Below the pieces are notes generated by a model. The model did not search any database. It saw only the letters and a program-made list of their open reading frames with translations, and had not been told where the DNA came from. A stretch of DNA of 64,000 bases from a virus. Positions within the stretch are counted from its first letter, which is position 1. Each line of letters opens with the position of its first letter. The position numbers and the translations under genes are program-made. Below, piece after piece: positions 13,569-14,308 of this stretch. The DNA is taken from IMG/VR virus record IMGVR_UViG_3300012932_000063; one strand, written 5' to 3'.

Positions 13569-13688
13569 AAAAGTATCCGGGACATTTTCTATGTCCCCGT
13601 AGTGGCGACTATGGCACCGCCCATTATGTGTTCGCACATAATGTTGCCCCACCTGAGTGGGGAATGCTCTCATGAAGAGCAAAGGAAT
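13569..13688 (+). ncRNA. Orphan TnpB omegaRNA-like scaffold 1
   Basis: AAAAGTATC.GGG hairpin, CCCCGTAGTGGCG..ATGGC core, further hairpins, AAAGGAAT; homologous to 39912-40068. Confidence 0.75.
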
Positions 13689-13752
13689 TAACTGGACAAT
13701 CAATTGGGAATATGGTAGGATATAGCCTCAAAACAAAAATTTGAGGTGCAAA

Positions 13753-14007
13753 ATGGGAAATAAATTGAGGAAAGAAAAGAAGTCATCAACTTTAGAGGAT
13801 ATAATGACTACCCTAAATTCAGAATTAGATGACATAAGAAAAGAATTAGGTGATTCAAACAAATACTCTAATCTTGATACTTTTTCTGAGACAATAATTC
13901 GATTGCGTAATCTGGTGGAGGCGTACCAAAAAACCAACGATCTTTTTCAGGCAATGAGTCCCATAAAGCGACTTCTTCGTCGGAAGGCTCGTAAAAACCA
14001 GAACTAG
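13753..14007 (+). CDS. Hypothetical protein, + member of overlapping pair 1
   Basis: Own promoter TGGACA-17-TAGGAT and GAGGTG RBS; paralogue 14309-14623. Confidence 0.7.
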   Translation: MGNKLRKEKKSSTLEDIMTTLNSELDDIRKELGDSNKYSNLDTFSETIIRLRNLVEAYQKTNDLFQAMSPIKRLLRRKARKNQN

Positions 14008-14074
14008 GTATATACGGTGCAATATTCTTTCTTTTAAATTTGGATATTAACCAACAAATTGGACAATTTTTCAT
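13868..14074 (-). CDS. MKNCPICWL protein, - member of overlapping pair 1
   Basis: AGGAG RBS, minus promoter TTGACT-17-TAACGT; paralogue 14430-14672. Confidence 0.65.
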   Translation of the reverse strand: MKNCPICWLISKFKRKNIAPYIPSSGFYEPSDEEVALWDSLPEKDRWFFGTPPPDYAIELLSQKKYQD

Positions 14075-14149
14075 CTTGAAGTATCTCCTAAAATAATAAT
14101 GGGAGGCAAACGTTATAGCGTGATGAAAAATTAGTCAATAATTTTCAGG

Positions 14150-14241
14150 AAAAGTATCTGGGCGGATATTTTCTGCCCCGTAGCGGCGACTATGGCATAC
14201 CCCCTCGGCACTTGCGGATAATGTTCCCACGAGGAACAAAA
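14150..14241 (+). ncRNA. Orphan TnpB omegaRNA-like scaffold 2
   Basis: AAAAGTATCTGGG hairpin, CCCCGTAGCGGCG..ATGGC, AATGTTCC..GGAACAAAA as in 40012-40034. Confidence 0.7.
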
Positions 14242-14308
14242 TAATTAACTGGACAATCAATTGGGAATATGGTAGGATATAACCTCAAAACAGATTTTGA
14301 GGTGCGAC

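Follow-up and report, generated by a model that had tools for sequence, protein, structure and literature searches.

The orphan omegaRNA scaffolds at 13569-13703 and 14150-14260 of the window, the whole 64-kb stretch of viral DNA that we analysed, are real scaffolds of Poribacteria-type TnpB elements, and the phage that carries them is a phage of a sponge bacterium. We propose, with a probability of roughly 0.6, that they are immobile, tnpB-deleted, tandemly duplicated remnants of such elements, with a right end that now forms part of a promoter, and that the 20-mer TTGGGAATATGGTAGGATAT found after each scaffold is that promoter.

What identifies the scaffolds? The general model for the omegaRNA (reRNA) of IS200/IS605 tnpB elements is ISDra2 (PMC8612924). 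We fetched 22 TnpB2 relatives from Poribacteria genomes and compared their 3' ends. The host tnpB 3' ends contain a conserved RNA that starts with AAAAGTATCNGGG within the last tnpB codons, passes through five stem-loops to ...ACAAAAGGAAT and a 22-nt hairpin, CTCCAGTCTTTAGACTGGAGAG, and ends in GGTTCAA or GATGTCAA. RNAalifold on the family alignment yields 36 pairs, 26 of them with compensatory changes. The covariance model R1, based on 18 copies from host genomes and 2 from the window, matches the tnpB2 3' end (170 bits), a complete orphan scaffold at 19155-19300 on the plus strand that has the right-end hairpin and GATGTCAA (129.9 bits), scaffold 1 at 13569-13699 (plus strand; 92.5 bits, E 1.7e-21) and scaffold 2 at 14150-14282 (plus strand; 51.1 bits); it has no match at the tnpB1 3' end. 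An Rfam scan of the window matched tRNAs alone. Scaffold copies number 3-14 per host genome, and the left-end junctions in the window and in host loci give TTAT as the family TAM. Scaffold 1 proper (13569-13687, plus strand, ending ...CAAAGGAAT) retains SL1-SL5 intact up to GGAAT and has a fold z-score of −3.8; together with the scaffold at 19.2 kb it has the short SL4 of the tnpB1 subfamily. Scaffold 2 (14150-14244, plus strand, ending ...AAAATAAT) is decayed: pairs in SL2 and SL4 are broken (non-canonical), SL3 is absent, and the fold z-score of −0.73 is no better than that of shuffles.

Both scaffolds have lost the right-end hairpin. Every one of the 21 host copies inspected reads ...GGAAT, then the 22-nt hairpin, then GGTTCAA or a close variant. 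In scaffolds 1 and 2, 11-15 nt stand where the hairpin is expected, and the family's right-end hairpin with GGTTCAA or GATGTCAA behind it is absent from both. TnpA-type hairpins occur in the window only at 19271-19290, 37122-37141 and 40040-40059, which are the right end of the 19.2-kb scaffold and both ends of the tnpB2 element. Nor does a tnpB gene lie upstream of either scaffold, where host copies mostly have an ORF of 403-430 aa. With this hairpin lost and no gene for TnpA seen, the units are unable to move.

What stands in place of the hairpin? Scaffolds 1 and 2 both continue as TAACTGGACAA-TCAA and then enter the identical 20-mer. The replacement after scaffold 1 (TAACTGGACAA plus TCAA, 13688-13703, plus strand) includes the −35 box TGGACA, and the corresponding segment after scaffold 2 (TTAACTGGACAA, TCAA and the 20-mer) occupies 14245-14280 of the plus strand. 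TTAACTGGACAA is found at 10236-10247, 13688-13699 and 14245-14256, the only three matches in the 64-kb window at ≤1 mismatch, and TCAA lies directly 3' of the second and third copies (13700-13703 and 14257-14260). The 20-mer, at 13704-13723 and 14261-14280, has only these two matches at ≤3 mismatches in the 64 kb, with 0.01 expected. A consensus scan identifies it as the spacer and −10 box of a candidate promoter, P3 (13693-13721, plus strand; TGGACA, 17 nt, TG-n-TAGGAT), and the same arrangement, TGGACA-17-TAGGAT with an upstream TG, recurs as P4 at 14250-14278. At the consensus level P3 and P4 are sigma-70-type promoters with an extended −10 (9/12 matches). The first copy of TTAACTGGACAA lies in the −35 region of the tnpB1 promoter P1 (TGGACA-17-TATACT, 10241-10269), which together with tnpB1 spans 10241-11483 on the plus strand. 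An earlier note on this DNA had reported these features, and we find its coordinates and sequences of both scaffold ends exact to the base, its missing TnpA hairpin borne out, and its placement of the 20-mer in the next gene's promoter and of TTAACTGGACAA in that of tnpB1 correct, both as judged by the consensus scan only. The note also regarded TCAA as a retained terminus. TCAA is indeed present and is possibly a kept transposon terminus, in a window where chance places TCAA somewhere in a 17-nt spacer with a probability of 9%.

A third junction (11486-11530, plus strand) lies just after tnpB1, where AAAAGAAT is followed by TATC-TTGACA-17-TATAAT. This candidate promoter, P2, heads a three-gene operon that ends before scaffold 1. 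P2 and P3 agree at 10/12 bases upstream and at 14/20 around the −10 box, and their spacers are identical at 8/17 positions, so the spacer can vary. Judging from these alignments, the scaffold-end/promoter junction occurs three times (P2, P3 and P4), with the upstream scaffold decayed to a different extent in each case. The hairpin replacement aligns to the hairpin 3' arm plus TCAA (TA-ACTGGAcA---aTCAA; p 0.003-0.006 with TCAA, 0.07-0.1 without it), a hint that the −35 box arose from the element's right end. Such an origin is weakened by the 9% chance of TCAA, by P1 and P2, which have ATAA and ATAT where P3 and P4 have TCAA, and by the general occurrence of TTTAAC/TTATC directly 5' of the −35 box in this phage's promoters, including the tRNA promoters.

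The scaffolds belong to a tandem array with a period of 557-598 bp. Unit 1 contains a small passenger gene of 84 aa (13753-14007, plus strand) and an overlapping minus-strand ORF of 68 aa (13868-14074), the latter a homologue of host P0124 with its own ribosome-binding site and a promoter-like site at 14075-14149. Unit 2 contains the equivalent gene of 104 aa (14309-14623, plus strand; 49% identical to the unit 1 copy and, by tblastn, 63% identical to host P0121) and an overlapping ORF of 80 aa (14430-14672, minus strand; 57% identical to P0124). The small ORFs overlap convergently on opposite strands at 13753-14074 and 14309-14672 in the phage and at 2487-2822 of host contig L111, and the pair is open and conserved in the three copies despite protein identity of about 50%. 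Downstream of P3, a 5' UTR hairpin, CCTCAAA...TTTGAGG (13726-13746, plus strand), holds the ribosome-binding site of the plus gene in its 3' arm; the unit 2 hairpin at 14283-14302 retains the stem and has a different loop. In the 5' UTR of each convergent small ORF, a hairpin pairs with the ORF's own ribosome-binding site.

How should the identity of the two 20-mers be read? The proteins of units 1 and 2 are 42-49% identical, and the duplication is therefore old. Between the units the scaffold is 61% identical and the coding parts are 53-71% identical; the promoter of the plus gene, from −45 to +3 (13685-13724, partner 14242-14281), is identical at 39/39 positions, and the −10 box, leader and start of the minus ORF (14064-14118, partner 14662-14716) at 55/55. 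Segment by segment, then, identity is unbroken for longest in the two 5' regulatory regions. The 55-nt run, the longest between the units, exceeds the promoter block. Since the units are tandem paralogues, the identity of the 20-mers is not an independent coincidence, and it points to constraint on, or patchy conversion of, regulatory DNA and not to two guides converging on one target.

The host elements indicate where the units came from. Homologues of the plus ORF (P0121) and of the minus ORF (P0124) lie in ENA contigs, one of them 2.2 Mb long, and an exhaustive profile search with the small plus-strand protein returned one clear homologue, P0121. The host order is LE, genes of 109, 133 and 88 aa (the last with a 73-aa ORF antisense to it), back-to-back promoters, a structured leader, tnpB, scaffold, hairpin and GGTTCAA. 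The 88-aa gene and the stop codon of the 133-aa gene overlap (translational coupling), and the former is thus a genuine operon member. In two host elements (L111 and L114) the passenger pair lies directly upstream of tnpB, and the host-element tnpB is 77% DNA-identical to tnpB1. At L111:2860-2930 the promoters of the antisense gene and of tnpB stand back to back in the palindrome CTGTCAAGTAAATATTTTTTACTTGACAG, of which the phage units retain the antisense half alone. Homology between phage and host element extends from the small pair through the antisense promoter and then jumps to AAAAGTATC, so that the phage units lack about 1.2 kb, made up of the promoter and leader of tnpB and about 366 of its codons. 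This comparison indicates that the cargo did not take the place of tnpB and that tnpB was lost by deletion from a cargo-carrying element. Of the repeat unit envisaged in the earlier note, the succession of promoter, cargo and omegaRNA holds, and the replacement of tnpB by cargo does not, the cargo being the passenger found upstream of the host tnpB.

We propose that an old tandem duplication of a cargo-carrying IS200/IS605 element of the Poribacteria type, one that lacked TnpA, gave rise to the units, and that its omegaRNA-coding right end survives in them as the scaffolds. In each unit the deletion would have taken away the promoter and leader of tnpB together with its first 366 codons or so, with the left deletion edge just after the antisense promoter of the passenger pair and the right one at AAAAGTATC, the first base of the scaffold. 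After ...GGAAT, a sigma-70-type promoter with an extended −10 (TGGACA-17-TGnTAGGAT) would start transcription near 13728 and 14285, and the predicted transcript would include the hairpin that hides the ribosome-binding site, encode the passenger protein of 84 or 104 aa and extend into the following scaffold. The 20-mer would owe its identity in the two units to its place at the core of the duplicated promoter, among the two best-preserved blocks. We infer promoter activity and read-through from the sequence, and the scaffolds would then be idle or at most spare guides. Against this reading, the 17-nt spacer is identical while the unit flanks differ by 30-40%, which may reflect constraint beyond the promoter or patchy gene conversion. 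Also against it, tnpB1 is under strong purifying selection without a scaffold of its own, and scaffold 1 has SL1-SL5 intact, the cognate subtype and a putative −10 module upstream.

The condition of scaffold 1 may owe something to recombination between copies. Its 3' half (13640-13688) is 100% identical (49/49) to 19222-19270 in the 19.2-kb scaffold, with the identity stopping at GGAAT; over the 5' 70 nt the two scaffolds are 64% identical, and beyond GGAAT scaffold 1 enters the promoter while the 19.2-kb scaffold enters the hairpin. We interpret the 49-nt stretch as a conversion tract that ends where homology ends, with the 19.2-kb scaffold as the likely donor, so that the good state of the 3' half may be recent rather than selected. 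Compensatory changes between scaffolds 1 and 2 were considered as proof of selection in the orphan state and set aside: the variants are also present in host lineages, and half of scaffold 1 appears to be a recent conversion.

Scaffold pieces mark cassette borders throughout 11.4-19.3 kb. A stub of a third scaffold (14748-14769, plus strand; AAAGTATCTGGGAGGA...) matches R1 with 6.6 bits, which is not significant alone. It is fused to a truncated DNA methyltransferase-like N-terminus (14770-14934, MSIQNRTIFEGDNLPILRG...DLIYI), and its GGGAGGA is the ribosome-binding site of the truncated ORF. At 17361-17386 a right-end remnant stands before a complete gene for a methyltransferase-nuclease, a 577-aa methyltransferase/Mrr-like nuclease fusion (17418-19151) that ends at the 19.2-kb scaffold. 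An HNH endonuclease gene (19285-19752; Pfam HNH, E 8e-10) comes directly downstream of the fusion gene, with its start inside the right end of that scaffold or immediately behind it. About 22 nt upstream of scaffold 1 lies a module (13483-13547, plus strand) composed of ATTAATCATATACAG, a 9-bp hairpin and TATATAATA, which recurs at 17290-17357 with compensatory changes in the stem and which may be a terminator plus the −10 box of a stand-alone omegaRNA gene. At 17.3 kb the scaffold is missing between this module and ACAAAAGGAAT.

Two intact tnpB genes lie in the window. Their proteins are 58% identical, and both contain the Pfam domains OrfB_IS605 and Cas12f1-like_TNB. TnpB1 (393 aa; gene at 10302-11483, plus strand) is encoded without a cis scaffold. 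TnpB1, TnpB2 and about 110 of 120 homologues conserve the D of DIG, an alternative E ([DN]E[AS]YTSQ) and the D of HRD, and glycine at the canonical RuvC-II Glu position is the norm of the family, which is of the rearranged RuvC type (RIIr) of TnpB described in PMC10691335. A related phage contig, L110, encodes a TnpB1 that is 89% identical in protein and has the same tnpB1 promoter. With dN/dS 0.11 at dS 0.58 between the two, tnpB1 is under strong purifying selection in two phages, and its maintenance without a scaffold of its own means that a guide must come in trans. L110 contains two copies of a unit made of a tnpB 3' fragment, a TTGACx promoter and a small gene; at L110:9737-9950 the final 215 nt of tnpB1 recur in a 92%-identical second copy that has an in-frame stop and stands ahead of a further promoter and small gene, and beyond about 10.2 kb the contig is GC-rich and host-like. 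IMG/VR yielded no relative of TnpB1, of the small plus-strand protein or of the scaffold core (34 core-motif loci, none with an R1 match), and the INPHARED phage collection no DNA match to 9800-15200.

Could the scaffolds be immobilised guides for TnpB1? Scaffold 1, and perhaps scaffold 2, would owe its transcription to the upstream −10 module or to read-through and would be bound by TnpB1 with the fixed guide UUGGGAAUAUGGUAGG, and the complex would cut TTAT-flanked UUGGGAAUAUGGUAGG in a rival phage or a unit-less allele, leading to cassette homing or exclusion of competitors. We consider this unlikely, even though an intact, selected tnpB1 with a family-normal rearranged RuvC and no cis scaffold, the five stems and cognate subtype of scaffold 1, and the conserved module in front of it all fit such a role. 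The use of PATE omegaRNAs in trans is an accepted idea (PMC10055086), the alignment of the tail with the hairpin 3' arm and TCAA has a p of about 0.005, and the identical 39-nt block includes the spacer. However, a 55-nt block with no relation to a guide matches just as perfectly, TCAA has its 9% chance and gives way to ATAA or ATAT in P1 and P2, scaffold 2 is decayed, and with the hairpin and the GGT linker missing the start of a guide is undefined. A search for TTAT plus the 20-mer, which has limited power, gave no TTAT-flanked protospacer in the window, IMG/VR, JGI metagenomes or, at full identity, 176 Poribacteria genomes. The window has no TAM-flanked match to the 20-mer; the 8 matches to a 16-mer in IMG/VR are chance matches, none with TTAT or extending into the guide; and the 30 matches to an 18-mer in JGI metagenomes are likewise chance matches, none TAM-flanked and none in an orphan-like context. 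Five Poribacteria genomes contain 19 matches at ≤2 mismatches, compared with 20 for a reversed control, and the 176 genomes contain 33 at ≤1 mismatch, with TTAT in front of only one. That near match (L066:1485-1520) differs from the guide at position 7, falls within a gene for a PQQ/BamB-like beta-propeller protein and is probably due to chance. The earlier note's immobilised guides sharing one target thus find no support: the 20-mer belongs to a duplicated promoter, three stems of scaffold 2 are damaged and a TAM-flanked match was not found. Distinctly unlikely, in our estimate, is a fuller version in which a domesticated, transposase-free TnpB1 and free-standing immobilised guide-RNA genes hard-wired to the cassette promoter block form an RNA-guided, homing-type cassette drive. 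If it were true, mixed infections would lead to cutting of relatives that carry the cassette promoter behind TTAT, repair would copy the unit of scaffold, promoter and cargo, and the locus would represent an intermediate step from transposon omegaRNA to CRISPR-like array.

Two further roles can be considered. Kept as the structured 3' UTR of the cassette before it, the scaffold might serve as a stabiliser, a TnpB-dependent processing site between cassettes or a terminator for the minus strand. Scaffolds stand at every cassette boundary in 11.4-19.3 kb, and TnpB processes its own mRNA at the omegaRNA (PMC10278001). On the minus strand at 13597-13579, the reverse complement of SL1 plus GATACTTTT scored as intrinsic-terminator-like and could end transcripts of the convergent minus-strand gene. 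The terminator-like call is confined to one copy, though, and scaffold 2 decays while its unit is not lost, and we hold a cis role to be very unlikely. TldR-like autoregulation, in which a TnpB-omegaRNA complex guided by the 20-mer would bind P3 and P4 and repress the small genes, would account for a guide that equals the spacer and −10 box of two promoters, and TldRs do repress through promoter occupancy (PMC10705468). It is nonetheless highly improbable: the P3 and P4 sites are preceded by ATCAA and not by the TAM TTAT, and TnpB1 and TnpB2 keep the catalytic set of an actively spreading family, so that binding would mean cutting of the phage's own genome.

With the remnant reading preferred, how does the locus compare with known systems? 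Relative to the omegaRNA of tnpB-only IS200/IS605 elements of the Poribacteria subfamily, the scaffold sequence and structure are the same, with six stems in the family and five in scaffold 1. The scaffold start is also that of the Poribacteria tnpB elements, where it lies inside the last coding part of tnpB in full elements; the phage units differ in that a preceding tnpB, the right-end hairpin and the left end are all missing, in a flank that is a promoter identical in two copies, and in their phage setting. In T4-type phages, PeSL promoter-stem-loop cassettes flank shuffled small genes. The phage array resembles them in its repeated promoter and stem-loop before small variable genes and in signs of recombination at the repeats, and is unlike them in that its module is welded to a transposon-derived RNA scaffold.

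PATE-like non-autonomous IS200/IS605 elements maintain an omegaRNA for trans use (Meers et al., PMC10055086), and like them the phage units have no tnpB gene and retain the omegaRNA, with TnpB encoded elsewhere in the genome. PATEs, however, have both hairpin ends, are mobile and contain no protein genes, whereas the phage units have no hairpins, a conserved small gene pair inside each unit and a tandem arrangement. TldRs are immobilised TnpB relatives whose guide RNAs lack transposon ends and target promoters (Wiegand et al., PMC10705468). The phage locus is similar in the loss of transposon ends, in a guide sequence that coincides with a promoter and in its phage setting; unlike TldR, its nuclease is not inactivated and keeps the RuvC residues, and the promoter match is the guide's own coding DNA alone, placed after ATCAA and not after a TAM. 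Arrays of whole omegaRNAs accompany the exapted TnpBs of Sigma-TnpB, cluster 17474 (Altae-Tran et al., PMC10691335). There too the whole scaffold is duplicated in tandem, but about 450 bp of genes separate the phage copies and the guides are identical, not diverse. Gene-less trans omegaRNAs (PATEs), loss of ends with promoter guides (TldR) and duplication of omegaRNA (Sigma-TnpB) are thus already known; what appears to be new here is a hairpin-less scaffold welded to a promoter and repeated with passenger genes in a phage.

Finally, the locus can be regarded as an IS200/IS605 element dismantled in a phage: the nuclease gene and the scaffold have been separated, the mobility hairpin has been lost, and the right end would have become part of a promoter driving former passenger genes. 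With the shared "guide" now explained by promoter duplication, the locus would gain importance only if TnpB1 proved to load the hairpin-less scaffolds. The steps seen here resemble those proposed to lead from TnpB to fixed-guide regulators and Cas12 arrays, and the locus would offer a natural intermediate for comparison.
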